DNA of 64,000 nt from Candidatus Multivorans sp. (GCA_965247095.1 OZ251997.1:2272001-2336000), one strand, 5' to 3'. Positions 500 through 59,896 are shown, counted from the first letter of the stretch. Numbers and translations: made by a program. Notes: generated from the sequence alone by a model not told the origin.

Positions 500-1954
500 A
501 TGCTCGTGATCCCAGGAAAGTCCGGCCACACCTGCGATGGCCCGACCCGGCGGGAGTTCCTCCGCGTCGGCTCGCTCGGCATCTTCGGCATCTCGCTCAG
601 CCAGGCGCTGGCGCTCCGTGACGCGCACGCCGCCACCGCCGCGGCCGACGCGATTGGCGGCGGCGCCGGCTTCGACCGGGCGAAGTCCGTCATCCTGCTC
701 TTCCTCCAGGGCGGCCCGAGCCACATCGACATCTGGGATCCGAAGCCCGACGCGCCCACCAACATCCGCGGCGACTTCAGCGCCATCGACACCAAGGTGC
801 CCGGCATCCGGCTCTCCGAGACGATGCCGCTCCTGGCCGACCAGGTCGACAAGTGCACCCTGATCCGCTCGATGAGCTACACCCCGAAGGGGCTCTTCAA
901 CCACACCGCCGCGATCTACCAGATGCTCACCGGCTACCCGCCCGACCGCGTCTCGCCCTCGGGCCAGCTCGAACCGCCGAGCCCCGCCGACTTCCCCACT
1001 GCCGGCGCCCAAATCTCGAAGCTCAAGCCCCTCGACGATCCGATGCTTCCCTTCGTCGAGCTCCCGCGTCCGCTCCAGGAATCGAACGTAATCGGCAAGG
1101 GAGGCGCTGCCGGCTTCCTCGGCAAGGCTTACGACCCCTACCGGCTCTACCAGGATCCGAACCAGCCGATCGAGCTCAGCGATCTGGAACTGCGCAAGGA
1201 GACCTCCCCCGAACGCCTCGCCGGCCGCTTCGAGCTCCGCAAGGGCCTGAACGCCTCCATGCCCGACCTCGAAAAGGCAGTCGCCAATTCCGCGCTCGAC
1301 GAGTACTACGAGAAGGCCTACGACCTCGTGCTCTCCGGCAAGGCCCGCCAGGCCTTCGACCTCTCCAACGAGAACGACGACATGCGCGAGCGCTACGGCC
1401 GCAACACCTTCGGCCAGGGCGCGCTCATGGCCCGGCGACTGATCGAGGCCGGCACCCGCTTCGTGCAGCTCAACTGGCCCGCCGTCGCCAACGGCAACCC
1501 CGAGATCGACTCCTGGGACACCCACGCCGCCAACTTCGGCCCACTCCGCAACCTGCACTGCCCCGTCCTCGACCGAGCCCTATCGGCGCTGCTCTCCGAC
1601 ATGGACGACCGCGGCCTGCTCGACGAGACCCTCGTCGTCGCCGTCGGCGAGTTCGGCCGCTCTCCGCGCCTCGGCGTCAGCACCTCCGGCAACAGCAACT
1701 CCCCCGACGGCCGCGACCACTGGCCCTACTGCTACACCGCCCTGGTCGCCGGCGCCGGCGTCTCCCGCGGCCAGCTCTACGGCGAATCCGACGAGACCGG
1801 CTCCTCACCCCGCGAGAAGCCCGTCCACCCGAACGACCTGCTGGCGACCGTGTACCACACGCTCGGCATCGACCCGGCCATGGAGATCCTGAACCACCTG
1901 GATCAGCCGAGGGAGCTGGTCAAGGGCGAAGTGATTCGGGGTTTGTGGGGGTAG
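500..1954 (+). CDS. DUF1501 family protein (Tat-like signal)
   Basis: AGGAG upstream of ATG 500; TRREFLRVG twin-arginine-like motif; LFLQGGPSHIDIWDPKP, WDTH, GEFGRSP, GRDHWP motifs. Confidence 0.9.
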   Translation: MLVIPGKSGHTCDGPTRREFLRVGSLGIFGISLSQALALRDAHAATAAADAIGGGAGFDRAKSVILLFLQGGPSHIDIWDPKPDAPTNIRGDFSAIDTKVPGIRLSETMPLLADQVDKCTLIRSMSYTPKGLFNHTAAIYQMLTGYPPDRVSPSGQLEPPSPADFPTAGAQISKLKPLDDPMLPFVELPRPLQESNVIGKGGAAGFLGKAYDPYRLYQDPNQPIELSDLELRKETSPERLAGRFELRKGLNASMPDLEKAVANSALDEYYEKAYDLVLSGKARQAFDLSNENDDMRERYGRNTFGQGALMARRLIEAGTRFVQLNWPAVANGNPEIDSWDTHAANFGPLRNLHCPVLDRALSALLSDMDDRGLLDETLVVAVGEFGRSPRLGVSTSGNSNSPDGRDHWPYCYTALVAGAGVSRGQLYGESDETGSSPREKPVHPNDLLATVYHTLGIDPAMEILNHLDQPRELVKGEVIRGLWG

Positions 1955-2083
1955 GGCCCGTTCACCGTCGCGACGGCCCCACTCTCTCGATCCAGGCATT
2001 CCTCGCCGTCGTCAGGCGTCCCAGTGCCGCCCGGATCAAAGAGCGTGCGATCGGCTAGCCTCAGGTCAACGGAGGAAGACCGC

Positions 2084-2296
2084 ATGAGGCCAAACGAGAT
2101 CATCTTCGAGGTCACCGAAGCGTGTGAGGGCGGATACGACGCCAAGGCGCTCGGCTACAGCATCTTCACGGAAGGCGACGACTGGGAGGATCTGAAAGAG
2201 ATGGTCCGAGACGCAGTACTCTGCCACTTCGACGAAGAGAACGCTCCCAGGGTCATCCGGTTGCACCTCGTCACAGAGGAGGCCATCGCGGTATGA
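2084..2296 (+). CDS. hicB: HicB-like antitoxin (short form)
   Basis: GGAGG RBS; EIIFEVTEACEGGYDAKALGYSIFTEGDDWEDLKEMVRDAV matches the short HicB-fold family; directly upstream of hicA. Confidence 0.75.
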   Translation: MRPNEIIFEVTEACEGGYDAKALGYSIFTEGDDWEDLKEMVRDAVLCHFDEENAPRVIRLHLVTEEAIAV

Positions 2297-2302
2297 AGCG
2301 AT

Positions 2303-2551
2303 ATGAAGCTGCCTCGCGACCTCTCCGGTAGCGAGGCCGCAAAGCGGCTCCGCCGCCAGTACGGTTACCGCGTGACTCGAACCAGGGGCAGTCACATGAC
2401 CCTTGCCTTGACCGTCGGCGACAAGAGCCACACTGTGACCGTGCCTCGCCATCGGAATCTGCGAGTCGGAACCCTCAACGAGATCGTCGGCAGCGTCTCG
2501 GCGTTTCTTGGCTTGGCGAAGGGCGAGGTGCGTGAAGCACTCTTTCGGTGA
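2303..2551 (+). CDS. hicA: HicA family toxin
   Basis: MKLPRDLSG...GYRVTRTRGSH...VTVPRHRNLRVGTL; the GSH catalytic motif is present. Confidence 0.9.
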   Translation: MKLPRDLSGSEAAKRLRRQYGYRVTRTRGSHMTLALTVGDKSHTVTVPRHRNLRVGTLNEIVGSVSAFLGLAKGEVREALFR

Positions 2552-2558
2552 GACCGAA

Positions 2559-2947
2559 GTGGACCGGCGCCGGTTCTGAACGGCGACGGCGCCGTCAAGC
2601 ACCCCGGCCTCGACAACCACGGCATGGGCTCGCTCTTCGAGGAACTGATCCGGCGCTTCAACGAGGAGAACAACGAGGAAGCCGGCGAGCACTTCACGCC
2701 GCGCGACGCCGTCAAACTGATGGCGAACCTCGTCTTCCTGCCGGTCGCAGACCAGATTCGGTCCACGACATACACGCTCTACGATGGCGCCTGCGGCACC
2801 GGCGGCATCCTGACGGTGGCCGAAGACGTGCTGCAGTCGCTCGCCGCCGAGCGCGGGAAGCAGGTCTCCACGCACCTGTTCGGCCAAGAGATCAACGCCG
2901 AGACGGCAAGAAGGACATGAACGATCCCCGCTTTCGGATCGAGCACG
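2559..2947 (+). pseudogene. hsdM: Collapsed hsdM remnant (second copy, two internal deletions)
   Basis: GTGGAC start context like 4460; then sequence homologous to 4920-5259, then a jump to the equivalent of 5441 (GKKDM.DPRF.IEH); missing about 454 and 181 bp relative to the 4460 copy. Confidence 0.9.
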
Positions 2948-2996
2948 GGCATCTCGCATGGTCGGCAGCTCCGGCGTCGCGGGAACGCCGGCGCAG

Positions 2997-3025
2997 TTGA
3001 CACGGATCCCGTGTACACCTACCCT
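2997..3025 (+). promoter_or_regulatory. Sigma70-type promoter with overlapping palindromic operator (leaderless TA transcript)
   Basis: TTGACA(2997-3002)-17 bp-TACCCT(3020-3025), 6 nt before ATG 3032; palindrome ACACGG-ATC-CCGTGT at 3000-3014. Confidence 0.7.
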
Positions 3026-3031
3026 GTGTCC

Positions 3032-3256
3032 ATGAACGTCACACTCTCCATCGACGATCGGGTCGTCGCCGAGGCCCGGCGGATCGCCTCCGTTCGAGGA
3101 ACCAGTCTGAACCAACTCGTTCGGGACTACCTCAACGAGCTGACCCGAACTGACGACGCGGAAGCGGTGATCGCAAGGCTCAACGCGCTCTGGACCGAAG
3201 AGGACTACCGCTCGCAGGGGCCGTGGACGCGCGAGGAGCTGCATGAGCGGTCGTGA
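3032..3256 (+). CDS. Ribbon-helix-helix antitoxin (DUF6364-like)
   Basis: MNVTLSIDDRVVAEARRIA...TSLNQLVRDYL...WTREELHER; overlaps the PIN gene. Confidence 0.85.
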   Translation: MNVTLSIDDRVVAEARRIASVRGTSLNQLVRDYLNELTRTDDAEAVIARLNALWTEEDYRSQGPWTREELHERS

Positions 3257-3659
3257 GTTCCTTGACACGAACGTTCTGATCTACGCCCACGACGCCCGCG
3301 ACACGCGCAAGCGGACATGCGCCCGCGAGTTGATCCGCCGCCTCCTGCGCGAGCAGCGCGGGGTCCTCTCGTTGCAGGTCCTGCAGGAGTTCTTCGCTGC
3401 CGCCACACGAAAGCTGAGTATGAGCAGCGAGGACGCCCGACGCCGCATCATGCAGTACTCCCGATTCGACGTCGTGACCCTCGACACGGTCGATCTGATC
3501 GCGGCGGTCGATCTGCACCGGCTACATCAAGTGTCCATCTGGGACGCCCTCATCGTGCGGGCGGCGATCAACGGCGCCTGCACGACCCTGCACACCGAGG
3601 ACATGCAGGAAGGCTACGTCGTCGAGACGCTGACGCTCCGGAATCCGTTTCAGCCTTGA
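3243..3659 (+). CDS. vapC: PIN-domain (VapC) toxin
   Basis: FLDTNVLIYA, QVLQEF, SIWDALIV, TEDM acidic catalytic motifs. Confidence 0.9.
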   Translation: MSGREFLDTNVLIYAHDARDTRKRTCARELIRRLLREQRGVLSLQVLQEFFAAATRKLSMSSEDARRRIMQYSRFDVVTLDTVDLIAAVDLHRLHQVSIWDALIVRAAINGACTTLHTEDMQEGYVVETLTLRNPFQP

Positions 3660-3695
3660 CCGGCGACGCCGCGGTACGCCCGCAAGACCCTGAGG

Positions 3696-3724
3696 TTGCG
3701 TTGTAGCCGCGTTGAAGCTACATT
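3696..3724 (+). promoter_or_regulatory. Promoter with palindromic operator (leaderless TA transcript)
   Basis: TTGCGT(3696-3701)-17 bp-TACATT(3719-3724), 6 nt before ATG 3731; inverted repeat TGTAGC(3702-3707)...GCTACA(3717-3722). Confidence 0.65.
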
Positions 3725-3730
3725 GCGGCC

Positions 3731-4024
3731 ATGACGACCGTTGCTATTCGCGTGTTGAAGGACCGTCTAAGCGAGTACCTGCGCATCGCTCAGTCGGGCG
3801 AACGGGTCACCGTCACCAGCCGAGGAGCCCCCATCGTAGACCTCGTCCCTCACGCACCGCCAAACATGGACGCAGACGACGAGTTGTTGCGGCTGGCGCG
3901 GGCAGGAGAGGTACGTCTCGGCAGGCCGAACGCCACGGCGGCGTACACGCGCCCGCCAAGGGACCGGCAGTTGCCGCACCATGAAGTGATGGCGATCCTG
4001 GGCGCGGTCCGCGGCGACGGATGA
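3731..4024 (+). CDS. Phd/YefM family antitoxin
   Basis: MTTVAIRVLKDRLSEYLRIAQSGERVTVTSRGAPIVDLVP is a classic Phd N-terminus; ATGA overlap with the toxin. Confidence 0.9.
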   Translation: MTTVAIRVLKDRLSEYLRIAQSGERVTVTSRGAPIVDLVPHAPPNMDADDELLRLARAGEVRLGRPNATAAYTRPPRDRQLPHHEVMAILGAVRGDG

Positions 4025-4458
4025 CGCTCTATGCCGAGAGCAGCGCGGTCCTGTCCTGGCTGTTCGGCGAACCGCCCGGAGACGAAGCGCTCCGGCTACT
4101 GGCATCCGCGTCCACGGTCTTTGCCTCGGAGTTGACGCTCCTCGAGTGCGACCGCGCGATCCGCTGGGCAGAAGCGACCGGCCGGATGGACGCCCGTGAT
4201 GCCGAGGCGGCGCGCTTGCGACTCAAGTCCGAGACGGAGTCATGGAACGTCTTCCGGGTTGGAACCGTCATCATGGACCGCGCGCGCCGCCCCTTCCCAC
4301 GCGAGCCGGTGCGCGCGCTGGACGCGTTGCACCTGGCAACCGCGCTCCGAATCCGCGAGTTCCAGAGAGAGCTGCAAGTCCTCACTTTCGACCATCGCAT
4401 CCGGTCGAACGCCGTTGCCTTGGGGCTCGACATTCTGCCCGTGGACCGGAAGGACTGA
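4021..4458 (+). CDS. vapC: PIN-domain (VapC) toxin
   Basis: LYAESSAVL, LTLLEC, RALDALHLATA, LTFDHR. Confidence 0.88.
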   Translation: MTLYAESSAVLSWLFGEPPGDEALRLLASASTVFASELTLLECDRAIRWAEATGRMDARDAEAARLRLKSETESWNVFRVGTVIMDRARRPFPREPVRALDALHLATALRIREFQRELQVLTFDHRIRSNAVALGLDILPVDRKD

Positions 4459-4459
4459 A

Positions 4460-5968
4460 GTGGACAACGCCTCCCTGAGCTGGATCACGGGCTACATCTG
4501 GGGAATCGCCGACGATGTCCTGCGGGACCTCTTCGTACGCGGCAAGTACCGGGACGTCATCCTGCCGATGACTCTGCTCCGGCGGCTCGATGCCGTGCTG
4601 GAGCCGCGGAAGCAGCACGTCCTGAAGGTGAAGGCGAGCCTCGACGAACTCGGCATCGTGGACCAGGACGCCACCCTTCGAGAAGCTGCGAAGCAGGACT
4701 TCTACAACACGTCGAAGTACGCGTTGCGCGACCTTCGCTCCCGCGCCGGCCGGCAGCGCCTCCGAGCCGACTTCGAGGCCTGGCTCGAAGGCTTCTCCCC
4801 GAACGTCCAGACCATCCTGAACAACTTCGAGTTCCGCAACCAGATCCCGAAGCTATCGAGGGCCGATGCCCTTGGCACGCTGATCGAGAAGCTCACCTCG
4901 CCCGACATCAACCTGGGCCCGGCGCCGGTTCTGAACGGCGACGGCTCCGTGAAGCACCCCGGCCTCGACAACCACGGCATGGGCTCGCTCTTCGAGGAAC
5001 TCATTCGCCTCTTCAACGAGGAGAACAATGAGGAAGCCGGCGAGCACTTCACGCCGCGCGACGCCGTCAAACTGATGGCGAACCTCGTCTTCCTGCCGGT
5101 CGCAGACCAGATCCAGTCGGCAACGTACACGCTCTACGACGGCGCCTGCGGCACGGGCGGCATGCTGACCGTTGCCGAAGACGTCTTGCAGCAACTGGCC
5201 GCCGAACGCGGCAAGCAGGTCTCCACACACCTCTTCGGCCAGGAGATCAACTCGGAGACATACGCCATCTGCAAGGCCGACCTGCTGCTCAAGGGTGAAG
5301 GCCAAGCCGCCGACAACATCATCGGCGGGCCAGAACACTCCACGCTCTCGAACGATGCCTTCCCCACCCGCGAGTTCGACTTCATGCTCTCGAATCCCCC
5401 TTACGGCAAGAGCTGGAAGACGGACCTCCAGCGCATGGGCGGTAAGAAGGACATGCGCGATCCACGCTTCCTAATCGAGCACGACGGCAATCCCGAGTAC
5501 TCCCTGGTTACCCGCAGCAGCGACGGCCAGATGCTGTTCCTCGCCAACAAACTCTCGAAGATGAAGCAGGGGACTCCCCTCGGCAGCCGGATCGCCGAGG
5601 TCCACAACGGCAGCTCCCTCTTCACCGGCGACGCCGGGCAAGGGGAAAGCAACATCCGGCGCTGGATCATCGAGAACGATTGGCTGGAAGCCATCGTCGC
5701 CCTGCCGCTGAACATGTTCTACAACACCGGCATCGCCACCTACGTCTGGGTGCTCACGAACCGGAAGCCCGCCCACCGGCAGGGCAAGGTCCAACTCATC
5801 GACGCCACGAAGTGGTCCCAGCCGCTGCGCAAGAACCTCGGCAAGAAGAACTGCGAGCTCGGCGAAGCGGACATCGCCCGCACCTGCGACGCGACCGAGG
5901 GCCTCCTGGCCGAGATCATCGGCGGCATGGCGCCCGGTCCGCCCGAGGCTCGGACCCGCCGGGTTTAG
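4460..5968 (+). CDS. hsdM: Type I R-M methyltransferase HsdM, probably with a C-terminal internal deletion and in-frame run-on into the next PIN gene
   Basis: IWGIADDVLRD, GEHFTPRD, YDGACGTGGM (SAM binding), SNPPYG (catalytic), FYNTGIATY; jumps from IARTCDA directly to the terminal TEGLLAEIIG motif. Confidence 0.9.
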   Translation: MDNASLSWITGYIWGIADDVLRDLFVRGKYRDVILPMTLLRRLDAVLEPRKQHVLKVKASLDELGIVDQDATLREAAKQDFYNTSKYALRDLRSRAGRQRLRADFEAWLEGFSPNVQTILNNFEFRNQIPKLSRADALGTLIEKLTSPDINLGPAPVLNGDGSVKHPGLDNHGMGSLFEELIRLFNEENNEEAGEHFTPRDAVKLMANLVFLPVADQIQSATYTLYDGACGTGGMLTVAEDVLQQLAAERGKQVSTHLFGQEINSETYAICKADLLLKGEGQAADNIIGGPEHSTLSNDAFPTREFDFMLSNPPYGKSWKTDLQRMGGKKDMRDPRFLIEHDGNPEYSLVTRSSDGQMLFLANKLSKMKQGTPLGSRIAEVHNGSSLFTGDAGQGESNIRRWIIENDWLEAIVALPLNMFYNTGIATYVWVLTNRKPAHRQGKVQLIDATKWSQPLRKNLGKKNCELGEADIARTCDATEGLLAEIIGGMAPGPPEARTRRV

Positions 5969-6412
5969 GTCGACACCTCGGTGTTCGGCGGCTGCGAGGA
6001 CGAGGAGTTCCGGGCACCGTCGCGCCGGTTGTTCGAGCGGTTTCGGCAGGGTGAGTTGACACTGGTCTTCTCCCGCACCATCCTGGACGAGTTGAACCGG
6101 GCGCCGCGGCGCGTCAGAATGACGCTGGACGCGGTGCCTAACGAGCACAGGGAGTTCCTTGAGAGTTCGTCCGAGGTGGAGCTTCTCGCCGAGCGCTACG
6201 TCGCCCGCGGCGTTGTCGGACCGGCGATGCTGGAAGATGCTCTACACATCGCAGCCGCCACCCTCGCCGGCGCCGACCTGCTCGTCAGTTGGAACTTCAA
6301 GCACATCGTGAACGACCGCCGCATCCGCCTCGTCAGCGCCGTCAACCGAGAACTGGGGCACGAATCCCCGAACATCTGCACTCCATGGAGGCTTCTGGAA
6401 GATGACTCCTGA
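5927..6412 (+). pseudogene. PIN-domain toxin with in-frame TAG (5966-5968)
   Basis: MAPGPPEARTRRV*VDTSVFGGCEDEEF aligns with the paralog MFPAPPEQQTLRVYVDTSVFAGCEDEKF (TAC->TAG); DALHIAAA and SWNFKHIV follow. Confidence 0.85.
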
Positions 6413-6641
6413 CACAACAAGGAAGGGAAAGAAGGGGTTTGACTGCGTCGCCTTCCAACGCGAACAGCGGGATCGCATCAGCCGCATGCTGAATGCCATG
6501 ACCCGGGAAGAGCGAGTGGCTTGGCTATGCACCGTGGAGCCAACAGACCCGGTGCTGCGCCGCATCATGCAGGAGGCGCCGCGCGGCACTCTCCGCAAAG
6601 CCGGTGTTCCGCCGCCTCACTCCGAAGCCCGAAAGAGCTAA
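6402..6641 (+). CDS. Small FDCV-motif protein, putative PIN partner/antitoxin (copy 1)
   Basis: KKGFDCVAFQREQRDRI...M..EER..WL...TDPVLRR; overlaps the PIN end; paralogous to neighbours. Confidence 0.7.
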   Translation: MTPDTTRKGKKGFDCVAFQREQRDRISRMLNAMTREERVAWLCTVEPTDPVLRRIMQEAPRGTLRKAGVPPPHSEARKS

Positions 6642-6645
6642 GGGG

Positions 6646-6873
6646 ATGACTGCCAAGACCAAGAAGAAGGAGTTCGACTGCGTTGCCTTCCAGCGCGCGC
6701 AGCGGGACAAACTCGGCAAGAAGTTCGAGACCATGAGCAGCGGGGAGATCGCCGGCTGGATGCGCGACTACCGACCGACAGACCCGAAGCTACGGCGTCT
6801 GGTCGAGCGCCTGCTGGACCGCACCGCCAGCGAGCAGGACGTGCCCTCCCCGGGTCATCGTCTCCCGGCATGA
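6646..6873 (+). CDS. Small FDCV-motif protein (copy 2)
   Basis: AGGGG RBS; KKEFDCVAFQRAQRDKL...TDPKLRR. Confidence 0.7.
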   Translation: MTAKTKKKEFDCVAFQRAQRDKLGKKFETMSSGEIAGWMRDYRPTDPKLRRLVERLLDRTASEQDVPSPGHRLPA

Positions 6874-6918
6874 ACCGCTGGGCCGCCTGTTGGCGGCCGA
6901 ACAAGCCGAAGCGAAGAA

Positions 6919-7110
6919 ATGACGACCAAGGCCAAGAAGGACTACGACTGCGTGGAGTCCGTACGGGAGATCCGGGATCGCATCGGCGCCAAGATGGCCC
7001 GGATGTCCCGCGACGAGCGCGTGAAGTGGCTCAATACAAGGGAGTACTCTGACCCGATCCTCCGGCGATTCGCCGCCAGGCCCGAAGAAGCGCGAAGCAA
7101 CAACCCATAG
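6919..7110 (+). CDS. Small FDCV-motif protein (copy 3)
   Basis: KKDYDCVESVREIRDRI...MSRDERVKWL...SDPILRR. Confidence 0.7.
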   Translation: MTTKAKKDYDCVESVREIRDRIGAKMARMSRDERVKWLNTREYSDPILRRFAARPEEARSNNP

Positions 7111-7122
7111 GCGCTACGCCGC

Positions 7123-7959
7123 ATGTTCCCGGCTCCGCCCGAGCAACAGACGCTCCGCGTGTACGTCGACACCTCCGTGTTCGCCGGCTGCGAGGACGAG
7201 AAGTTCCGCACCGCGTCGCGGCGGTTGTTCGAGCGGTTCCGCGCTGGCGACATGACCCTCGTCCTGTCGGCGGTTACCACTGGCGAACTGGATACGGTGC
7301 CCGAAGCAGCCAGAGCCGTGCTCGGCACGGTGCCCCGGGAGCACACGGAGTTCCTGGAATCGTCGACGGAAGCCGAGCAACTCGCCGACCTCTACATCGA
7401 GGCAGGCGCGGTGGACGCCGCCATGCGGTCCGCCGCCCTGCACGTGGCCTTCGCCACGCTCGCAGGCGTCGACACGCTCGCGACGTGGAACTTCAAGCAC
7501 CTCCTGAACTTCTACCGCTTGCGCCGGTTCCACTGCGTCAACCGGGAGCTCGGACATCCCCATCTGGAGATCCACGAGGCCCAGGCCGTCCTGGGCGAGA
7601 ACATCGTCGACCCGAACAAGAAGGGCTTCGACTGCGTCGCCTTCCAGCGCGAGCAAAGGGACCGCATCAGCCGCCTGCTGAACTCCATGACCGAGGAGGA
7701 GCGGTCGGACTGGCTGTGCAACGTGGAGATCACGGACCCAATTCTCCGCCGCATCTGGGAGCGGTCGCCGCGCGGCACCCTCCGCAAGGCCGGGAATGAA
7801 CCCTCCAAACCCCAGGAAGGGGGCGCCATGACCGCGGGCCCCGACTGCGCGCGATGGTCATCGGCGATTCGCGCTTGCGGGTCACGGACGCCGCGCTCGC
7901 CGAGACCCCACTTCGGTTGGTTCAGTCTCCCGCTGTGCTCATGGTCGTCCGTGGAATGA
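7123..7959 (+). CDS. PIN toxin fused in frame to an FDCV-motif domain; runs on into the hsdS remnant
   Basis: VYVDTSVF, ALHVAFA, TWNFKHL, then without a stop KKGFDCVAFQREQRDRISR...PRGTLRKAG (close to the 6402 ORF); tail after about 7830 is probably read-through. Confidence 0.75.
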   Translation: MFPAPPEQQTLRVYVDTSVFAGCEDEKFRTASRRLFERFRAGDMTLVLSAVTTGELDTVPEAARAVLGTVPREHTEFLESSTEAEQLADLYIEAGAVDAAMRSAALHVAFATLAGVDTLATWNFKHLLNFYRLRRFHCVNRELGHPHLEIHEAQAVLGENIVDPNKKGFDCVAFQREQRDRISRLLNSMTEEERSDWLCNVEITDPILRRIWERSPRGTLRKAGNEPSKPQEGGAMTAGPDCARWSSAIRACGSRTPRSPRPHFGWFSLPLCSWSSVE

Positions 7960-8150
7960 TCCTTGCCCGCAGAGTGCCCATCGCCAGAACGACGGCGCCG
8001 GTAACGATCAACCAGGACATGAAGGCCCTTGCGCCCGGCCCCGCGCTCAACGCGGCCTACATGGCGTCGTTCCTCGATTGCGCTCACGACGGCCTCCTTC
8101 CCCTCATCGACGAAGCAGGGCACGGGACGCGCAGGCTTCCAACCGAGCGT
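7828..8150 (+). pseudogene. hsdS: hsdS remnant (target-recognition-domain fragment)
   Basis: ATG 7828 with GGAAGGGG RBS, then frameshifted VLMVVRGMILARRVPIA...TINQDMKAL...GHGTRRL, recognisable HsdS TRD motifs. Confidence 0.75.
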
Positions 8151-8202
8151 TGCCAACAGAAGCTGCGTTTCGGTGATACTGTGTGGCTGTGAGATCGTGC
8201 CC

Positions 8203-8493
8203 ATGAGGAACATCACCGTTTCCATCGACGACGAGACGTACCGGCGCTCCCGCGTCCGAGCTGCCGAGCTGGACACCTCCGTGTCAGCGCTCGTGCGCCG
8301 CTACCTCAACCGTCTGGCTCAGGGCAAGGGTCTGGATGGCGCAGCGGAAGTGGCCACGGCCGAGACGGAGCGGGAACGTCGCGAGCGCATGCTCTGGGAC
8401 GTGTTCGAGGACATCCGTGCAACGCGGCCGGGCTTCCGAGCCTCCGAGAATCTTCCTCGTGAGGCCCTCCACGACCGCGATGCGTTTCGTTGA
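8203..8493 (+). CDS. Ribbon-helix-helix antitoxin
   Basis: MRNITVSIDDETYRRSRVRAAELDTSVSALVRRYL...LPREALHDR; overlaps the PIN gene. Confidence 0.85.
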   Translation: MRNITVSIDDETYRRSRVRAAELDTSVSALVRRYLNRLAQGKGLDGAAEVATAETERERRERMLWDVFEDIRATRPGFRASENLPREALHDRDAFR

Positions 8494-8902
8494 CACGAAC
8501 GTCCTGATCTACGCGGCCAGCCCCTCTCCGGACGAGGCCGGGAAGCGGCGACGCGCACAGCAGCTACTGAGGGACGGGGACCTCGCCTTGTCGGTTCAAG
8601 TGCTGCAGGAGTTCTACTGGCAAGCGACCCACCGGAGGCGAGGGGATGCACTGACCCCCTCGCAGGCTCTTGGATTCATCGACTCGATCCGCGACTTTCC
8701 GGTTCAGGCCATAACGCAGGACGTGTTTCGGAACGCGGTTGCTCTCAGCCGACGCTTCCAGATCGCATACTGGGACGCAGCCATCCTCGCGGCGGCTCAA
8801 GCCTCCGGCTGCGATGCGGTCTACTCCGAAGACCTGAGCCACGAACAGGACTACGGCGGCATACGCGTCATCGACCCCTTTGGCGAGGCAGCCCGCCGAT
8901 GA
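8480..8902 (+). CDS. vapC: PIN-domain (VapC) toxin
   Basis: MRFVDTNVLIYA, QVLQEFY, YWDAAIL, YSEDL. Confidence 0.9.
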   Translation: MRFVDTNVLIYAASPSPDEAGKRRRAQQLLRDGDLALSVQVLQEFYWQATHRRRGDALTPSQALGFIDSIRDFPVQAITQDVFRNAVALSRRFQIAYWDAAILAAAQASGCDAVYSEDLSHEQDYGGIRVIDPFGEAARR

Positions 8903-9003
8903 CAACCGACACCTCCGAGCGCGGGCTCGAACGTTTCATCTGCAAGCACTGGATGTCCGAGACCGTCTTCAACCGCGCGTACGATCAGGCGGGGGCACCG
9001 TGA
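8899..9003 (+). pseudogene. hsdR: hsdR collapsed to 34 codons (N-terminus joined to C-terminus)
   Basis: MTTDTSERGLERFIC-KHWMSETVFNRAYDQAGAP*; the halves resemble the usual HsdR start (TDTSE.GLE) and end (W..DTVF..TY); ATGA and GTGA overlaps with both neighbours. Confidence 0.65.
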
Positions 9004-10229
9004 ACACACGCGCCATTCTCATCGGGCTGGCGCTCGGTCTGGGGCTCGGAATCGCCGCGTCCGCGACGGGGTCGCCCGCGCTGCTGCGGGCCGCCGAGGC
9101 GGTCGAGCCGCTCGGCCAGGTCTTCCTGCGCGCGATCCAGATGGTCGTCATCCCGTTGGTGGCGGCGGTCGTCTTCGTCGGGGTGGGCCGGATCGGCGAC
9201 CTGCGGAAGCTCGGCCGGCTGGGGGGACTGGCCGTGGGCTTCTTCTGGGCAACGACCCTGCCGGCGATCCTGATCGGAATGGGGGTGATGGGCTTCGCCC
9301 TCACGTTCACGGCGCCCGTAGCGCCGCCCACGCCCGCCGCGGATCTGGACGCCGCGACGCCGGGCATGGTCGACTTCCTGGTCAACCTCGTCCCTCGGAA
9401 TCCGGTCCAGGTCGCCGCCGACGGCGCCCTGCTCTCCCTCCTCATCTTCATCGTCCTCCTGGCCGCGGCGACGACCACCCTGCCGAGCGAGAAACAGCGG
9501 ACGCTGACGTCTTTCGCGGAGGCCCTCGGGGACGCTCTGACCAGGCTGATGAGCTGGATCCTGTGGACCGCGCCGGTGGGTGTCTTCGGTCTTGCGGCGC
9601 CGGTGATCGCGAAAACGGGGGCGGCGATGCTGCAGAACCTTGCCGTCTTCATCGTCGCCGTCGTGGTCGGCCTCTTCATCCTGAAGGGCCTCGTTCTCCT
9701 GCCCCTGGTCTGGATCCTGGGCGGCGTGCCGCCCGGGCGCTTCATCCGGGCGACCGTGGGCACATACACCGTGGGCTTCACCACGACGACGTCCGTGGGG
9801 ACACTGCCGATGATGCTGCAGGAGGCGAAGCAACTCGGCCTGTCCGAGCGCAAGTACACGCTGATCCTGCCGCTGGCGGCGTCGATCAACCGTCCGGGCA
9901 GCGCGCTGTTTCAGAGCGCGTCGCTCGTCTTCCTGGCCGCCATGTACGGCGTGCCGCTCGACGCGGGGCTGATCGCCGCGGCGGTGGTGGCGATCTTCCT
10001 CGCCGCGATGACGGTCGCTCCCGTGCCCAGCGCCAGCATCGTGTCGATGGCGCCAGCCCTGGACGTGGTGGGCGTTCCCCTGGCGGGACTCGGCATCCTG
10101 CTGGGGATCGACCGCGTACCCGACGTCTTCCGCTCCGCGGCCAACGTGATCGGCCACATGTGCGCCGCGACCACGGTCGACGCGATGACCCGTCGCGACG
10201 GCGAGGAGCCGGCCGGCCGAGCCGAGTAA
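9000..10229 (+). CDS. Dicarboxylate/amino acid:cation symporter (DAACS family)
   Basis: GQVFLRAIQMVVIPLV, FTTTTSVGTLP, LPLAASINRPGSA, GIDRVPDVFRSAANV; many hydrophobic segments. Confidence 0.92.
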   Translation: MNTRAILIGLALGLGLGIAASATGSPALLRAAEAVEPLGQVFLRAIQMVVIPLVAAVVFVGVGRIGDLRKLGRLGGLAVGFFWATTLPAILIGMGVMGFALTFTAPVAPPTPAADLDAATPGMVDFLVNLVPRNPVQVAADGALLSLLIFIVLLAAATTTLPSEKQRTLTSFAEALGDALTRLMSWILWTAPVGVFGLAAPVIAKTGAAMLQNLAVFIVAVVVGLFILKGLVLLPLVWILGGVPPGRFIRATVGTYTVGFTTTTSVGTLPMMLQEAKQLGLSERKYTLILPLAASINRPGSALFQSASLVFLAAMYGVPLDAGLIAAAVVAIFLAAMTVAPVPSASIVSMAPALDVVGVPLAGLGILLGIDRVPDVFRSAANVIGHMCAATTVDAMTRRDGEEPAGRAE

Positions 10230-34567: not shown

Positions 34568-34917
34568 CGCGTCTTAGTCAATGAACGCCGCCGCTGAACC
34601 CGCGGCGCACAACTTCGACGCACCGAAAGAACGATGACGCTCCTGAACTCCCCTCGCAACCCCCGCACACCGCTCCCGAACTCCCTCCCGGACTCCTTCC
34701 CGGACTCCTTCCGACATGAGCCGGGCGCCTACACCAGCAGCGTCTTGAGACTTCGACTCGCGGAGCCTCCCACCCGGACCCTTGAAGCACACCTCGCACA
34801 CGCGCTCCAGATGCTCGGCGCCCGTTCAGCGCCGCTCATCTCCATGCTGCGCTTCCAGGCCCGCCCTCGCCCCTCGGCCCACCGACATGCGAACTACGGT
34901 CACCAGGGGCGCCGGCC

Positions 34918-35424
34918 ATGAACCGCCGCCGAATCGCCATCGCGATCGTCGCTCTGGCCGTCCTCGGCCCTATCGGCGCTCTGTTCTGGTTCGAGTCCAG
35001 GCTCGAAGCAAGACTGTCTCAGCGACCCGAAGTCGGCATGGTGTTCCCCGCCCTGCCGGGCCTCGCCGATGGCGAGTCCCTGCCGGCCTCTCCGGGCCGG
35101 CTTCGGGTCGTTACTTTCGCCAAGGCCGGCTGCGGCAACTGCGACCGCACGATCGCCACGTTCCGGCGACTCGCGGCGGACGGTGAGCACGACCTCGACC
35201 TGATCGCGGTCGTCGCGGCCGCTGAAACGACCGGCCTCGACGACACGGCCACTCTGCGCTCGATCGCCGACCCCGACGCCTCGGTATCCAAGCGCTTCGG
35301 CGTGATCCACGTGCCGCTCGTCTTTCTGGTCGACGAGCACTCCCGCGTCCAGGCCGTCACAACCGGCGAACGGCCCGAGGCCGCTTGGCGCTCCTTTCTG
35401 GGAATCGAGAACGATGCGCTCTGA
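34918..35424 (+). CDS. Membrane-anchored thioredoxin-fold (TlpA/ResA-like) redoxin
   Basis: N-terminal TM; CGNC; FGVIHVPLVFLVD cis-Pro loop. Confidence 0.8.
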   Translation: MNRRRIAIAIVALAVLGPIGALFWFESRLEARLSQRPEVGMVFPALPGLADGESLPASPGRLRVVTFAKAGCGNCDRTIATFRRLAADGEHDLDLIAVVAAAETTGLDDTATLRSIADPDASVSKRFGVIHVPLVFLVDEHSRVQAVTTGERPEAAWRSFLGIENDAL

Positions 35425-35965
35425 TCCGTCTGATACGGCCCGCCGTCGACGGTTGGCTGCCGCCGGGCTCATCCTCGCCACCGGCCTCGTTGCGGTCGCC
35501 GTCCGCGCTGTCGGACCCACCCTGGACCGCCTTTCCTGGGCAACCTCCACCGACCCATCGGCGCCGGGACCCGGCCAGATCGTTCGGCAACAGAAGCGCT
35601 CCGACTGCGGCCCGGCCGCACTCAAGATGATCCTCGATCACTACGGCGTCACCGGCATCACGCTCGCCGAGCTGGAGGTCGCCACCGGCACCGGCCCGGA
35701 CGGCACCAGCATGCTCGCCTTGAAGAAGACCGCCGAGCAAAGCGGTCTCGCCAGCCAGGGCCTCCGCCTGCCGGTGGAGCGGCTGTACGACATCCCGATG
35801 CCCGCGATCGCCCATGTCCACGGCGATCACTTCGTCGTCATTCGCAGCGCCGGCGAGGAACTGGTCATCGACGACCCGTCCCTGGGCCGCCTGCGCATGA
35901 GCGCCCGAACATTCGAACGCTCCTGGGACGGCGTCGTCCTCGCCTTCACCGGAGGGACCCACTGA
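35414..35965 (+). CDS. Stand-alone C39 family cysteine peptidase with N-terminal membrane anchor/signal
   Basis: QQKRSDCGPAALKMIL, GTSMLAL, DHFVV, IDDPS (Q, C, H, D residues); RRRR plus hydrophobic helix; no ABC domains. Confidence 0.9.
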   Translation: MRSDPSDTARRRRLAAAGLILATGLVAVAVRAVGPTLDRLSWATSTDPSAPGPGQIVRQQKRSDCGPAALKMILDHYGVTGITLAELEVATGTGPDGTSMLALKKTAEQSGLASQGLRLPVERLYDIPMPAIAHVHGDHFVVIRSAGEELVIDDPSLGRLRMSARTFERSWDGVVLAFTGGTH

Positions 35966-36154
35966 TTCCGCGGACGGAACGAAACCCGTCCATTTCACCA
36001 AAAACCCGTAACAACTCCAAAAGGGAGCACAACCATCAAACACTCATCCAAACGCGCCGTCGGACCGATTCCCGGCGTCGCCTCTTCGACGAACCCACAC
36101 ACCATGAATCACCACGTCCCCTTCACACACACAACACCGAAAGGACGCCCCTCC

Positions 36155-36475
36155 ATGAAAACGCGTATCGCCCTCCTGTCCGGACTTCTGACTCTCGCCG
36201 CCGGCGCCGCCCTTGCGACTCCGACGACACAGAGCGTGACGGCAGCCGACCAGGACCAGGACCAGGTCCTGACCGCCTGGGATGGCGACTGGGCCATTCC
36301 CGCGGCCGCCTACTCCCTCAGCGTTCCGACGACTGAGCAAGAGCCCATCGAACTCGCCGTCTACTGGCCCTGCGGCTGCATACCCCTTCCCGGCTGTCCG
36401 TTCCCGATGCCCTGGCCCGGCGGCCCGATCTTCAGTCCGTTCCCACTCCCGGACTCCTGCAAGTGCCCGTTCTAA
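36155..36475 (+). CDS. Secreted small protein with Cys/Pro-rich C-terminus (putative peptide precursor)
   Basis: AAGGA RBS; signal peptide; acidic spacer; YWPCGCIPLPGCPFPMPWPGGPIFSPFPLPDSCKCPF. Confidence 0.7.
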   Translation: MKTRIALLSGLLTLAAGAALATPTTQSVTAADQDQDQVLTAWDGDWAIPAAAYSLSVPTTEQEPIELAVYWPCGCIPLPGCPFPMPWPGGPIFSPFPLPDSCKCPF

Positions 36476-36525
36476 ACCCCTTCCGCCACGGCGCTTCCAC
36501 ACCAATCCCCAACCAACCCAACTCA

Positions 36526-36864
36526 ATGATCAACGTACACAAACGTGCCGGCGCCATATTGCTCACTCTCGCCGCCCTCGCAGCGTCGCCAGCCGGTTCG
36601 GCTGTCGCGACGTTCGGCTCGGTATTCACCCCAGCACCCCTGGCACCGGCGGCAACACCGGAAGACACCATCAGGCCGTTGGCCGAGGCTGTCGTCTTGC
36701 AGACCGCGACCCTCGACGCCGTAACCGGCGCCATCAACTGGGGCAAGGTCGCTTGCTGGACAGGCGTCGTCGGCGTTGCGGTCGGCGCCAGTCTGGTGGG
36801 GAGTCCCGGCCTCGGTGCCGGCGCATCCGCTGCGATGGCGATCGCCTGCCTGAGTATCTACTAA
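36526..36864 (+). CDS. Bacteriocin-like precursor A (signal + pro-region + GA site + two-Cys core)
   Basis: ...LQTATLDAVTGA|INWGKVACWTGVVGVAVGASLVGSPGLGAGASAAMAIACLSIY. Confidence 0.75.
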   Translation: MINVHKRAGAILLTLAALAASPAGSAVATFGSVFTPAPLAPAATPEDTIRPLAEAVVLQTATLDAVTGAINWGKVACWTGVVGVAVGASLVGSPGLGAGASAAMAIACLSIY

Positions 36865-36917
36865 TGCCAGCAGTCCCTCGCATTCCTTTCTCTACAACCC
36901 AAGCCTAGGATTCTCTC

Positions 36918-37235
36918 ATGAAACAACTTACAACCACCATCGCCTGTCTATCGCTACTGGCAGGAGTGCTCGCAGTTACCCCAAACGCTCAGCTCGGCGA
37001 CCCGGACCAAACTCCTTCGGAGTCGTCCCTCACGAGATTCGCAGACATCGCGCCCGACGGAATCAAACCGATCACCGACTGGGAAGCCGCCACGGTCACC
37101 GGCACTGGCTGGAGATCCGATTTCTGGTGCGGCGCGGCCGTCGGCGCCGGTTTTGTCTTGTCGGCGACCGGTGTCTTGACGCCCGTCGGAGTTGGTTTGG
37201 CCGCCGCGGGAATCTACTGCGCTCTGTACCTGTAG
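36918..37235 (+). CDS. Bacteriocin-like precursor B
   Basis: Signal peptide; ...ITDWEAATVTGT|GWRSDFWCGAAVGAGFVLSATGVLTPVGVGLAAAGIYCALYL. Confidence 0.75.
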   Translation: MKQLTTTIACLSLLAGVLAVTPNAQLGDPDQTPSESSLTRFADIAPDGIKPITDWEAATVTGTGWRSDFWCGAAVGAGFVLSATGVLTPVGVGLAAAGIYCALYL

Positions 37236-37324
37236 CGAGTCAGCGCTGATCTTCGCTACTCACCACTTCACGGGGAAGTCCCCACTCCCTTTCATCCATG
37301 TACTCGTAAAGGAGAATCAAACAA

Positions 37325-37624
37325 ATGAAGTTGCTGGCAATTGCACTCACCATCGCTCTCGTCTTCTCGGGGGCCGCCACTGCAGCGTCCACCACACTGG
37401 ACGTGCGGAACATCTCTCCGTCTTCCTCAATCCAGGAGGTCGTCCTTCTCGACGACGTCCTGCTGGATGTCACCAGAGGCGGCCTCAACCGGGTCGCGTG
37501 CATCGGCGTGGCCATCGGTCTCGGACTGGGTGGGCTCGTGGCCGGTGCAGTCACAGGGGGCGTTGGTTGGGCTCTGGCCGGAGCATACGCTCCGGCTGTT
37601 GGAGCCTTGCTGTGCTCGCTCTGA
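37325..37624 (+). CDS. Bacteriocin-like precursor C
   Basis: AAGGAG RBS; signal peptide; ...LDDVLLDVTRGG|LNRVACIGVAIGLGLGGLVAGAVTGGVGWALAGAYAPAVGALLCSL. Confidence 0.8.
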   Translation: MKLLAIALTIALVFSGAATAASTTLDVRNISPSSSIQEVVLLDDVLLDVTRGGLNRVACIGVAIGLGLGGLVAGAVTGGVGWALAGAYAPAVGALLCSL

Positions 37625-52430: not shown

Positions 52431-52470
52431 AGAGGACGGTCGAGGCCGTGGGCAACGGGGGTGGAACAGG

Positions 52471-52602
52471 GGATATGACGAACTTCTTCTCGCTCTAGTC
52501 ACGGAATCCAAGTCTGTCATAACTCTCTCGGCCCGTCTCGACACAATCTCAAAAACCCTCACAACTTGGACATATCGGAACGGGAATTACGAGGATCTTG
52601 TC
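52471..52602. repeat. Degenerate copies of the same 18-bp repeat on the other side of the AlbA_2 gene
   Basis: Reverse 52471 (13/18), forward 52507, forward 52549 (12/18), reverse 52585 (15/18); each pair keeps the 18-bp spacer. Confidence 0.7.
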
Positions 52603-59503: not shown

Positions 59504-59896
59504 TCATCTAGTCACCGCGCCGACGGCCGCGCCCAGAGCCTGATCGAAGGTCCGAACCTCTCGCACGCCGCGGCGACGACAACTTGCGAGATAGCAAAGA
59601 TCCCGGGCTCCCAGGGCGGGATGCTGTTCGTGGAGCGGCCGCGCCAGGGTCACATCCTCCTCCTCGAGCGGCCACACCTCCACTCGCGCTCTGGAGATTA
59701 GAGCCAGAGCGCGGTCGAGCGTCCGCTATCGCGCCACGGGCAGATAGGCGTGCGCCAACTCTTGGATCACTTCCGCCGAGGTGCACAGCGGCGTCTCGTT
59801 CCGGATGCTCTCCGCAAAGAACTCCCGGGCGGTGTCCCTCAGGGGATGCTGCCGGCCCACCGCGTACATGAAGACGTTCGTGTCGACGAAGATCAC
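59504..59896 (-). pseudogene. vapC: PIN (VapC) toxin with in-frame TAG (59726-59728)
   Basis: IFVDTNVFMYA...EVIQE...LPVAR*RTLD...ARDLCYLAS...TFDQAL; the frame continues to TGA 59504. Confidence 0.85.

Follow-up and report, generated by a model that had tools for sequence, protein, structure and literature searches.

Payne, Hughes, Fineran and Jackson (bioRxiv 10.1101/2024.01.29.577857) reported that type I restriction-modification (R-M) loci "frequently contained embedded genes," counted 3,568 cassette combinations, and used the term "guilt by embedding" for defense and toxin-antitoxin (TA) genes found within type I R-M, BREX, DISARM, and Hma loci; the main text of that preprint nowhere uses the word "recombination." Matelska et al. 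(Nucleic Acids Research [NAR] 2017, PMC5499597) described PIN-like toxins that are transcriptionally coupled to hsdM, hsdS, or hsdR in nonconserved arrangements. The PrrC anticodon nuclease, which has a functional link to the R-M enzyme, is encoded inside the EcoprrI type IC locus (PMC12707154), the tvr locus of Streptococcus pneumoniae carries a phd-doc-like pair, tvrAT, between hsdM and hsdR that has been proposed to act as a stabilizer (PMC6265443), and TgvAB/GmrSD-type enzymes are embedded in the type I R-M cluster of Vibrio cholerae VPI-2 (PMC11411939). Here we describe a type I R-M locus at positions 2084 to 9003 of a 64-kb stretch of DNA from Candidatus Multivorans sp. (GCA_965247095.1 OZ251997.1:2272001-2336000; the whole stretch is called the window), in which the R-M genes have been gutted and small TA-like genes persist.

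Results

Layout of the island and its relatives

We called genes across the window from six-frame open reading frames (ORFs), Pfam, NCBIfam, and PADLOC matches, and self-comparison. The gene order proposed for positions 2084 to 9003 in the initial annotation, which was made from the sequence alone, was confirmed by the ORF calls, the family matches, and the self-comparison: a hicB-like gene and hicA, an hsdM remnant (hsdM'), an RHH/PIN pair, a Phd/PIN pair, a truncated hsdM, a PIN domain with a stop codon, three FDCV ORFs, a PIN::FDCV fusion, an hsdS remnant (hsdS'), a second RHH/PIN pair, and a 34-codon hsdR remnant (hsdR'). These genes and both flanking genes lie on the plus strand. The island extends from 1955 to 8999, between the 3' end of a DUF1501 gene (1352..1954; PF07394) and a sodium:dicarboxylate symporter family (SDF) transporter gene (9000..10229; PF00375), and its G+C content is about 65%, versus 68 to 70% in the flanks. 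In our reading, a defense island is decaying here at a conserved chromosomal site: the type I R-M operon is dead and has been eroded to the edges of the TA-like genes that persist within it. We give this reading a probability of roughly three in four.

For comparison, we scanned with the HsdM protein, taking one genome per species, and used the best 80 of 596 confirmed relatives, to which the counts of loci below refer. The HsdM proteins of these 80 relatives are 75 to 90% identical, and the relatives belong to the Acidobacteriota, Latescibacterota, Gemmatimonadota, Planctomycetota, Pseudomonadota, Chloroflexota, and Deinococcota and even to Methanosarcina; the source organism is close to Thermoanaerobaculia metagenome-assembled genomes. 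The same HsdM family is present in 93 plasmid records at 60 to 80% identity, and the Meiothermus RefSeq plasmid pMtWR-220, annotated as hsdM-DUF262-hsdS-DUF4433-macro-AAA-DUF4276-hsdR, has the same layout. The type I R-M family to which the operon belongs is very conserved and has spread horizontally; its order, hsdM-hsdS-hsdR, is kept in all 80 loci. Decay of the hsd genes reaches beyond this window, since only 46 of the 80 loci have full-length hsdM, hsdS, and hsdR and the hsdR of 5 is internally shortened.

Three of the 80 relatives, the metagenome-assembled genomes L001, L002, and L061, carry the operon at the same chromosomal site. Both flanks of the window are present in L001 and L002 (90 to 96% nucleotide identity), and the left flank is present in L061. 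The DUF1501 gene is 90 to 91% identical to L001 1-601 and L002 6357-8302, with L061 1-76 also syntenic, and the right flank is 91 to 96% identical to L002 19301-20508 and L001 21028-21434. The interval between the DUF1501 and SDF genes measures about 7 kb in the window, about 11 kb in L002, and about 20 kb in L001, and its cargo differs. Both hsdS (1.45 kb) and hsdR (3.0 kb) are whole in L001 and L002, and the L061 contig ends within hsdR. The left 8.6 kb of the L001 interval (602-9235) holds a decayed hsdM'::PIN, FDCV genes, a PIN_12 protein, an HSDR_N-domain protein, and three transposase or integrase genes of the insertion sequence (IS) type; it resembles a second unit of greater age that insertion sequences have disrupted.

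Decay of the hsd genes

Comparison with the relatives bore out the claim that every R-M gene has lost part of its interior while the TA genes are mostly intact. The losses are internal in hsdS', hsdR', and hsdM', but the deletion in the larger hsdM copy lies near the gene's 3' end and is not central. This hsdM (4460..5926, GTG start) matches HsdM_N and N6_Mtase, retains the catalytic NPPY region, and encodes a protein with 90% amino acid identity to that of L001. It has lost 168 codons (504 nt) in frame at a junction near 5892/5893, between the residues CDA and TEGLL, with the microhomology GACGC. The gene spans positions 3 to 443 of the 661 positions of the PADLOC model MTase_I PDLC03029, and the hsdM-frame ORF, 502 amino acids (aa) here versus about 640 to 820 aa in intact relatives, does not encode a full-length HsdM with the C-terminal part through which it joins HsdS. 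The second copy, the pseudogene hsdM' (2552..2947), consists of a start context followed by two internal hsdM pieces. Positions 2561-2904 correspond to hsdM 4916-5259 (115 codons, 90.7% nucleotide identity) and positions 2904-2947 to hsdM 5440-5483 (15 codons, 84%), and a frameshift results from the two deletions, which removed 454 nt and about 180 nt.

The other two genes have been reduced further. hsdS' (7828..8156) retains an ATGACC start context and 104 internal codons; positions 7845-8156 correspond to residues 282 to 385 of the 482-aa HsdS of L001 (86.5% identity), and a two-domain HsdS is not encoded. hsdR' (8899..9003) is an in-frame remnant in which tblastn to the HsdR termini of L001 and L002 identified the first 15 or 16 and the last 18 or so codons of a roughly 1,000-aa protein. 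Relative to L002, 2,901 nt have been deleted in frame, with the microhomology CAAG, and neither nuclease nor helicase motor is left. The hsdR stop has been joined to the start of the transporter gene at TGAAC, with a loss of 2,070 nt relative to L001 or 469 nt relative to L002, and overlaps the transporter GTG at 9000 (GTGA). The 64-kb window contains no other hsdS that we could find and no second intact type I system, and its sole other HsdR-like piece is a 35%-identical C-terminal half at 56629-57918. With hsdM truncated, hsdS down to 104 of about 480 codons, hsdR down to about 33 of about 1,000, and the second hsdM a scrap, restriction-modification is predicted to be dead.

Mapped to the base against the comparators, the deletion junctions lie at microhomologies (GACGC, CAAG, and TGAAC), and the hsd losses are ordinary deletions between 4- to 7-nt repeats. 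These junctions also bear on whether the locus could be an assembly artifact, a chimeric or collapsed metagenomic contig. The source is apparently an uncultured lineage whose nearest records are all metagenome-assembled genomes, and internal repeats of 70 to 91% identity could mislead an assembler. However, such repeats are too divergent for collapse, and the junctions sit at microhomologies with reading frames and start/stop overlaps kept. Moreover, L001, L002, and L061 are independent assemblies that share flanks, gene order, and many of the junctions, and a PIN::FDCV protein that is 97% identical to the one in the window lies on another contig. An artifact is therefore very hard to credit.

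A comparable structure was seen at the end of hsdM in L061 (2846-2883), where the HsdM ORF ends in GGMALGPPKELDDDR. This end resembles a fusion of the few codons that open a PIN gene with the few that close it and looks like another near-total internal deletion that spared only the gene ends.

Retained toxin-antitoxin genes

The hicA gene (2303..2551) encodes an intact 82-aa toxin that matches PF07927 (E 9.6e-9; 35.7 bits, with a cut-off of 27) and is 65% identical in amino acid sequence to the L003 hicA product, with a ratio of nonsynonymous to synonymous substitution rates (dN/dS) of 0.23. Directly upstream lies a candidate antitoxin gene (2084..2296) whose 70-aa product is 43 to 83% identical to those of HicA-adjoining ORFs in 11 relatives. 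The initial annotation had called the two genes hicBA; the PF07927 match upholds the label for HicA, but no family model supports it for the upstream ORF. The AlphaFold2 (AF2) model of this HicB-like protein (predicted local distance difference test score [pLDDT] 83) has a beta3-alpha-beta topology that is compatible with the fold of the HicB N-terminal domain. HicB antitoxins have a partial RNase H fold and usually a DNA-binding domain as well, and the 70 aa contain no DNA-binding domain.

Each of the three VapBC pairs (3032-3659, 3731-4458, and 8203-8902) has a small antitoxin gene upstream of the toxin gene, with a gene overlap of 4 to 14 nt. All three toxins are intact, score above the PF01850 gathering score, and show the D/E...E...D...D acidic positions, which we read directly in the translations. 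Among the antitoxins, the RHH-type matches fall below gathering except for DUF6364 with the first RHH protein, and the Phd match is above the TIGR01552 cut-off. The first pair consists of an RHH-type antitoxin (RHH1, 3032..3256; DUF6364 E 5e-8, VapB_antitoxin weak) and a 138-aa VapC-type toxin (PIN1, 3243..3659; E 1.1e-13). PIN1 is cargo specific to the window, without a close copy in L001, L002, or L061 (best, 38%). Upstream of RHH1, direct reading of the sequence found TTGACA at 2997 and a 6+6 palindrome at 3000-3014, a region in which the promoter scan gave no site. The second pair consists of a Phd/YefM-type antitoxin (3731..4024; PF02604 and TIGR01552) with 78% and 73% amino acid identity to its counterparts at the same pre-hsdM position in L001 and L061 (dN/dS of 0.18 to 0.23) and a 145-aa VapC-type toxin (PIN2, 4021..4458; E 6.8e-11) with 70% and 69% identity, whose stop lies 1 nt ahead of the hsdM GTG. 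The third pair, immediately before hsdR', consists of a 96-aa RHH-type antitoxin (RHH2, 8203..8493; weak matches to FitA-like RHH, RHH_1, and DUF6364) that is 65% identical to pre-hsdR copies in L020, L003, and L061 and a 140-aa VapC-type toxin (PIN3, 8480..8902; E 2.3e-12) that is 68% (L020) and 63% (L061) identical to the toxins in the equivalent position. We corrected three start sites, so that the stop-interrupted PIN domain is read from the ATG at 5927, RHH1 most likely from 3032, and PIN3 from 8480.

The TA-like ORFs are intact and gave dN/dS values of 0.10 to 0.45 against their orthologues. The value for hsdM was 0.10, and even the hsd scraps gave 0.08 to 0.22, which indicates that the hsd damage is recent relative to the divergence of these genomes. 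The synonymous rate (dS) was 0.27 to 0.32 for the flanks (window versus L002) and 0.29 to 0.93 for the island genes (versus L001), a contrast that is suggestive of allelic replacement and not decisive; the L001 flank alignments are spoiled by insertions and deletions. The sole nonsense mutation is in the interrupted PIN domain, and its three FDCV partners stay open. A second toxin loss was seen in L039 (16347-16644) compared to L020 (16195-16903), where the RHH gene before hsdR is kept and a PIN toxin gene of about 370 nt is gone. The PIN stop codon and the L039 loss are toxin-first decay, as expected for TA modules.

The simpler alternative that the initial annotation had allowed for, retention of the TA genes while the R-M genes decayed, fits the window best. 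The R-M genes, no longer selected, would be eaten away by deletions, and deletions that reached into TA genes would not be tolerated or fixed, because loss of an antitoxin kills or because the pairs are useful. Only the extreme hsd ends that abut or overlap TA genes would then be left. When four deletions (504, 826, 294, and 2,901 nt) were placed at random on a hypothetical 9.9-kb ancestor built from the relatives with assumed lengths, all TA genes were spared with a P value of about 0.003. The stacking of cargo would predate the decay and reflect exchange of junction cargo within the family, probably through recombination in full-length hsd genes. We infer both the selective reason for TA retention and this order of events.

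Several points weigh against this reading. Addiction by chromosomal TA genes is debated, and the phd-doc-like pair of tvr had no addiction phenotype (PMC6265443). Toxicity and neutralization are putative for the pairs in the window. The HicB-like ORF is unproven as a true HicB because it had no Pfam match even at an E value of ≤5, no PDB sequence match, and no Foldseek match to its model at an E value of ≤1e-3. The deletion arithmetic depends on the assumed ancestor, and the 2.9-kb hsdR loss may represent several events. The main reading also leaves unexplained the origin of the extra 1.7 kb that the window has relative to L061 at 1960-3689, which comprises hicBA-hsdM'-RHH1/PIN1. Finally, simple erosion does not predict that the hsdM and hsdR deletions are in frame or that hsdR' overlaps both of its neighbors, a pattern that may reflect selection for translational coupling.

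This last point leads to an explanation in which the remnants are kept because they remain functional: the truncated HsdM would serve as an orphan methyltransferase or regulator, and the tiny hsdR' and hsdS' ORFs would be translational couplers that hand ribosomes on from the TA genes to the downstream genes, including the transporter gene. The lengths of the hsdM and hsdR deletions (504 and 2,901 nt) are divisible by three, the start of hsdR' overlaps the PIN3 stop (ATGA) and its stop overlaps the transporter GTG (GTGA), and the NPPY region of HsdM has been kept. No terminator-like site lies between genes, and one lies inside hicA; the scan of 1900-9200, with no promoter-like sites (0.6 expected) and two terminator-like sites (5.2 expected), is uninformative in this GC-rich lineage. 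However, HsdM lacks the C-terminal 168 residues that are present in all relatives examined, and the window contains no specificity subunit. Type I enzymes depend on HsdS for methylation. The deletions in hsdM' put it out of frame, and two in-frame events among four or five are within chance. We consider working remnants improbable. The transporter gene at 9000, a housekeeping gene, may now be translationally coupled to the remnant operon because of the two hsdR' overlaps.

The two hsdM start contexts

The initial annotation had also noted that two different toxin genes end directly before the same hsdM start context and had taken conserved hsd gene ends to be homology arms for the capture, swapping, and stacking of TA modules, so that the hollowed hsd genes would be the scaffold of an integrase-free, integron-like array. 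The shared context itself is as described. GACYGAAGTGGAC occurs exactly twice in the 64 kb, at 2552 and 4453 (0.00 expected from 100 shuffles), and the 13-mer at 2552-2564 matches that at 4453-4465. Ahead of hsdM, L061 has the same 13-mer (GACTGAAGTGGAC) and L001 nearly the same one (ACCTGAAGTGGAC); this sequence takes in the final sense codon of the upstream vapC gene along with its TGA. The copy ahead of hsdM' reads GAC CGA A GTG GAC, which is the vapC tail with its stop mutated from TGA to CGA; therefore, hsdM' once followed the same vapC gene. In the relatives, hicBA lies after hsdM and not ahead of it. As read from these sequences, hicA would adjoin hsdM' through a later deletion or rearrangement and not through capture at a conserved arm. 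We also considered the hicA-hsdS junction as the origin of the context that follows hicA and rejected it; L003, L015, and L020 read TGATGTGATGGCC there and not the 13-mer.

Junction cargo and its exchange in the family

When we tabulated the cargo at the junctions of the 80 loci and the three syntenic islands, junction-specific variation proved to be real, and the junctions on either side of hsdS were hypervariable across the 80. The hsdM-hsdS (M-S) gap exceeded 300 bp in 53 of the 72 loci in which hsdS was found, and the hsdS-hsdR (S-R) gap did so in 43 of the 61 loci with both genes. This family habitually carries embedded genes at three places: ahead of hsdM, at the M-S junction, and at the S-R junction. 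In the window, non-hsd genes likewise stand between hsd genes in the same orientation, judged by the positions of the remnants. The M-S cargo, classified by Pfam scans of 129 ORFs and tblastn, included GmrSD (13 loci), HicA (5 loci), and PIN-FDCV (about 10 loci), as well as Fic, DUF1016/YhcG, SIR2+HerA, ThsB-TIR/SLOG, OLD-type, Mrr, and ParE proteins and transposases. At the S-R junction (118 ORFs), we found DarT and/or Macro, SLFN_AlbA_2+HATPase_c_4 (7 loci), HTH-M78+DUF4411, DUF433 and DUF5615, RHH/PIN, HEPN/MNT, HigB, AAA_21, ApeA, and C5-methylase+Vsr. Upstream of hsdM (66 ORFs), the genes were mostly housekeeping genes that mark the island edge, with Phd/PIN in L001, L061, and L044 and RHH/PIN in L019.

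Cargo in this family is partly inherited and often replaced: the M-S cargo class required 39 changes on the HsdM tree with 73 labeled tips, below every one of 300 shuffles (mean, 48.7; minimum, 43) and far above the possible minimum of 16. The tree (FastTree, 81 rows) had 15 of 78 branches starred and the label was coarse (the first cargo gene, with 8 "unknown" cases lumped), so the count is indicative only. A base-level example of replacement comes from the sister genomes L039 and L020, which are 91 to 93% identical through the flanks and hsdM and have unrelated DNA in between. Their homology breaks after the ETEGL codons, within the last 10 or so codons of hsdM, and returns about 30 nt before hsdS. 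In L020, this segment holds hicBA. In L039, it comprises a PIN fused to HsdM, a gene for FDCV, and no more of hicBA than remnants. The M-S region of the window is itself a mosaic, in which the PIN domain, FDCV1, and FDCV2 are as in L001, FDCV3 is as in L002 and the left part of L001, and PIN::FDCV is as in L061. Within the clade of the window, Phd/PIN-hsdM is common to L001 and L061, and RHH/PIN-hsdR is common to at least five loci.

These data bear on the homology-arm array in two ways. In intact operons, long conserved DNA flanks the junctions, because HsdM is 75 to 90% identical across many phyla and archaea and is also carried by plasmids. Cargo turnover is high, the L039/L020 swap is clean, the hicBA remnants beside the new PIN-FDCV genes in L039 represent stacking, and the mosaic of the window combines units found separately in L001, L002, and L061. 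Partial hsdM duplicates upstream of hsdM, which are present in the window, L001, and L023, would be expected from a single crossover with incoming hsdM-bearing DNA. In L023 (Planctomycetaceae), the duplicate consists of HsdM_N and N6_Mtase fragments at 9340-9898, directly upstream of an intact hsdM. On the basis of these sequence comparisons, we favor the exchange of cargo, at the level of the family, by recombination within intact, conserved hsd genes.

For the locus in the window, however, the comparison with a capturing, integron-like array failed. The Pfam scan found no integrase domain among the island ORFs, the repeat search found no attC-like or other cassette-bounding repeats (all repeats were paralogous coding sequence), and the island has no common promoter architecture. 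Within the clade of the window, the cargo has been co-inherited with the hsd genes, and cargo on the family tree has phylogenetic signal, with fewer changes than in any shuffle. The 13-mer, which includes the last codon and stop of vapC, points to common descent plus deletion and not to a reusable arm, and the IS elements in relatives L001, L010, L011, L014, L057, and L065 offer another route of rearrangement. The hsd ends that survive in the window are 6 to 54 nt long. RecA-dependent recombination does not use homologies this short efficiently, so the hollowed state cannot be a working scaffold. We infer that homology arms operate in intact family members, where cassettes have been swapped inside conserved hsd frames, and not in the hollowed remnant; as an account of this locus, the array is unlikely. 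The eroded R-M operon with persisting TA-like genes remains the reading that we prefer.

HsdM::PIN fusions and the FDCV partner

The M-S region of the window contains a group of PIN and FDCV genes. The first is the stop-interrupted PIN domain (5927..6412), which gives a weak PIN_3 match and is natively fused in frame to HsdM. It has 90% amino acid identity to the L001 copy; codon 14 (5966-5968), which specifies Tyr in L001, is TAG here. In-frame HsdM::PIN ORFs of 812 to 819 aa were found in L001 (818 aa), L002, L010, L013, and L021, and one was also found in L039; the count among the 80 loci is a lower bound, with L031 to L047 outside it. A database search with the PIN part returned 18 clusters with HsdM_N and N6_Mtase, 17 of them of 815 to 871 aa and one of 450 aa. 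At the sequence level, then, a nuclease is physically tied to the type I enzyme in these proteins, and in the window the TAG breaks the link. A model of a relative of the interrupted PIN domain had a VapC-like fold by Foldseek.

Three genes for small proteins follow: FDCV1 (6402..6641, 79 aa), with 85 to 87% amino acid identity to the L001 copies; FDCV2 (6646..6873, 75 aa; a member of alignment A3), with 77% identity to L001 12652-12888; and FDCV3 (6919..7110, 63 aa), with 73% identity to L002 12438-12617 and 68% to L001 1880-2059. The next gene encodes the PIN::FDCV fusion protein (7123..7959). PIN::FDCV is a genuine native architecture: most of its 76 homologues are of 234 to 360 aa with >90% query coverage, and the two domains are fused in at least 60 proteins. 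The native part ends near 7827; the gene has lost its native stop, because the 97%-identical protein P0019 ends at 235 aa, and the ORF reads 43 extra codons into hsdS'. Another homologue, P0044 (334 aa), has the order FDCV-PIN-FDCV, with the small domain on both sides of the nuclease. The AF2 model of PIN::FDCV had a pLDDT of 73.9 (80 to 93 in the PIN part) and a predicted template modeling (TM) score of 0.61, and its top Foldseek matches were solved VapC structures (probability of 1.0, TM score of up to 0.68 on the target).

FDCV had no Pfam, NCBIfam, or PADLOC family, structure and family searches found no solved or named relative, PIN-FDCV gave only a subthreshold PIN_3 match, and the ESM Atlas returned only "hypothetical protein" clusters for it. 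An FDCV profile matched 983 representative clusters at an E value of ≤1e-3 and 110 at ≤1e-10. We modeled the complex of the L001 PIN domain with the neighboring FDCV protein, and the three runs scored 0.86, 0.86, and 0.83, compared to 0.00 for the best of three controls. Of 157 solved complexes, 116 attained that mark, as did 2 of 215 mismatched pairs; these counts are only rough, as our alignments were our own. The runs shared at least 92% of contacts, with a partner pLDDT of at least 78, and the interface included PIN residues 673 to 679, with the invariant Asp, and 779 to 780. Part of this confidence may come from likeness on the PIN side, because VapBC complexes have been solved. Together with the many fused proteins, the models support PIN-FDCV as a putative toxin-inhibitor pair, with FDCV as a predicted inhibitor of the PIN nuclease that would cover its active site. 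Full-text literature searches found no description of the recurrent HsdM::PIN fusion or the FDCV family, although supplements of the papers may list such cases, and judged by these searches and the family libraries, both appear to be new.

A broader reading combines these observations. The family would be an exchangeable carrier frame, recombining in its hsd genes, and one of its cargo types would be a suicide guard, a PIN domain tethered to the C terminus of HsdM and held in check by FDCV. A phage that disables or dismantles the R-M complex would free the tethered PIN domain from inhibition, and the infection would be aborted, as with PrrC. In the window, a disarmed copy would then be preserved, with its stop codon at the joint, beside inhibitors in surplus and a single-chain PIN::FDCV that inhibits itself. 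We offer this reading tentatively, as one that is more likely to be wrong than right by a wide measure.

Other elements in the window

Elsewhere in the window, the minus-strand ORF at 55999-57918 has an N-terminal part that is 35% identical to HsdR residues 540 to 991 and a C-terminal Schlafen/AlbA_2 domain. It is a second, unrelated type I remnant, and a DDE transposase gene (57961-59175, plus strand) adjoins it. A lone protein with SLFN_AlbA_2 and HATPase_c_4 (50835-52562, minus strand) has the architecture found at the S-R junction in 7 related loci. A weak PIN-like stretch at 59618-59890 on the minus strand is 30% identical to PIN1 over 96 residues, and its first codons have a 29- to 31-nt DNA match with the starts of PIN1 and PIN3. 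On the plus strand at 34634-37624, genes for Redoxin-like and Peptidase_C39 proteins are followed by four small ORFs (99 to 133 aa) without a Pfam family, and this could be a peptide-export or bacteriocin-type cluster.

Discussion

The main finding is ordinary in kind, as embedded genes and coupled PIN toxins have already been published and pseudogene erosion is routine. As in the loci of Payne et al. (bioRxiv 10.1101/2024.01.29.577857), cassettes lie between subunit genes, both here and in our survey of 80 relatives; unlike those loci, the host R-M genes here are gutted, and the cargo is almost all small TA-like pairs. TgvAB (PMC11411939) has a counterpart in the GmrSD_N proteins at the M-S junction of 13 of the 80 loci, but the window itself has no GmrSD, and its cargo is TA-like. 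The tvr locus encodes a tyrosine recombinase, and its hsdS target-recognition domains are shuffled (PMC6265443); the window has neither a recombinase nor an intact hsdS. Like an integron, the island stacks several small cassettes in a single orientation at one fixed site in the chromosome, and they vary between relatives. It differs in having no intI, attI, or attC, and its cassettes bring their own partners and, in at least one case, an apparent promoter/operator of their own.

What the locus adds is, first, a natural series, one site in three to four related genomes with stages of gain, stacking, and decay. This series supports the idea that TA pairs last longer than the systems that carry them, and with the base-level swap between L039 and L020, how embedded defense genes become embedded can be tested directly. 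Second, it adds two unannotated building blocks, the HsdM::PIN fusion (18 clusters) and the FDCV family (983 representative clusters). The three VapBC pairs of the island resemble known VapBC systems in their PIN toxins with conserved acidic residues, small upstream RHH or Phd partners, and overlapping stops and starts. In PIN-FDCV, by contrast, the partner is downstream or fused at the C terminus and has no known DNA-binding fold or family model, and PIN-FDCV has no model in PADLOC-DB v2.0.0. Section 17 of Matelska et al. (PMC5499597) contains no mention of HsdM and PIN joined covalently or of an FDCV-type partner.

PrrC, an RNase gene inside a type I R-M operon (PMC12707154), could by analogy serve as a model for the function of HsdM::PIN. 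PrrC is an anticodon nuclease of the ABC-ATPase type and not a PIN protein, it is a separate protein and not a fusion, and its activation by a phage anti-restriction peptide has been shown experimentally (PMC12707154), whereas HsdM::PIN is known from sequence. If HsdM::PIN is an abortive-infection switch tethered to the R-M enzyme, the PrrC principle would have a second, independent example.

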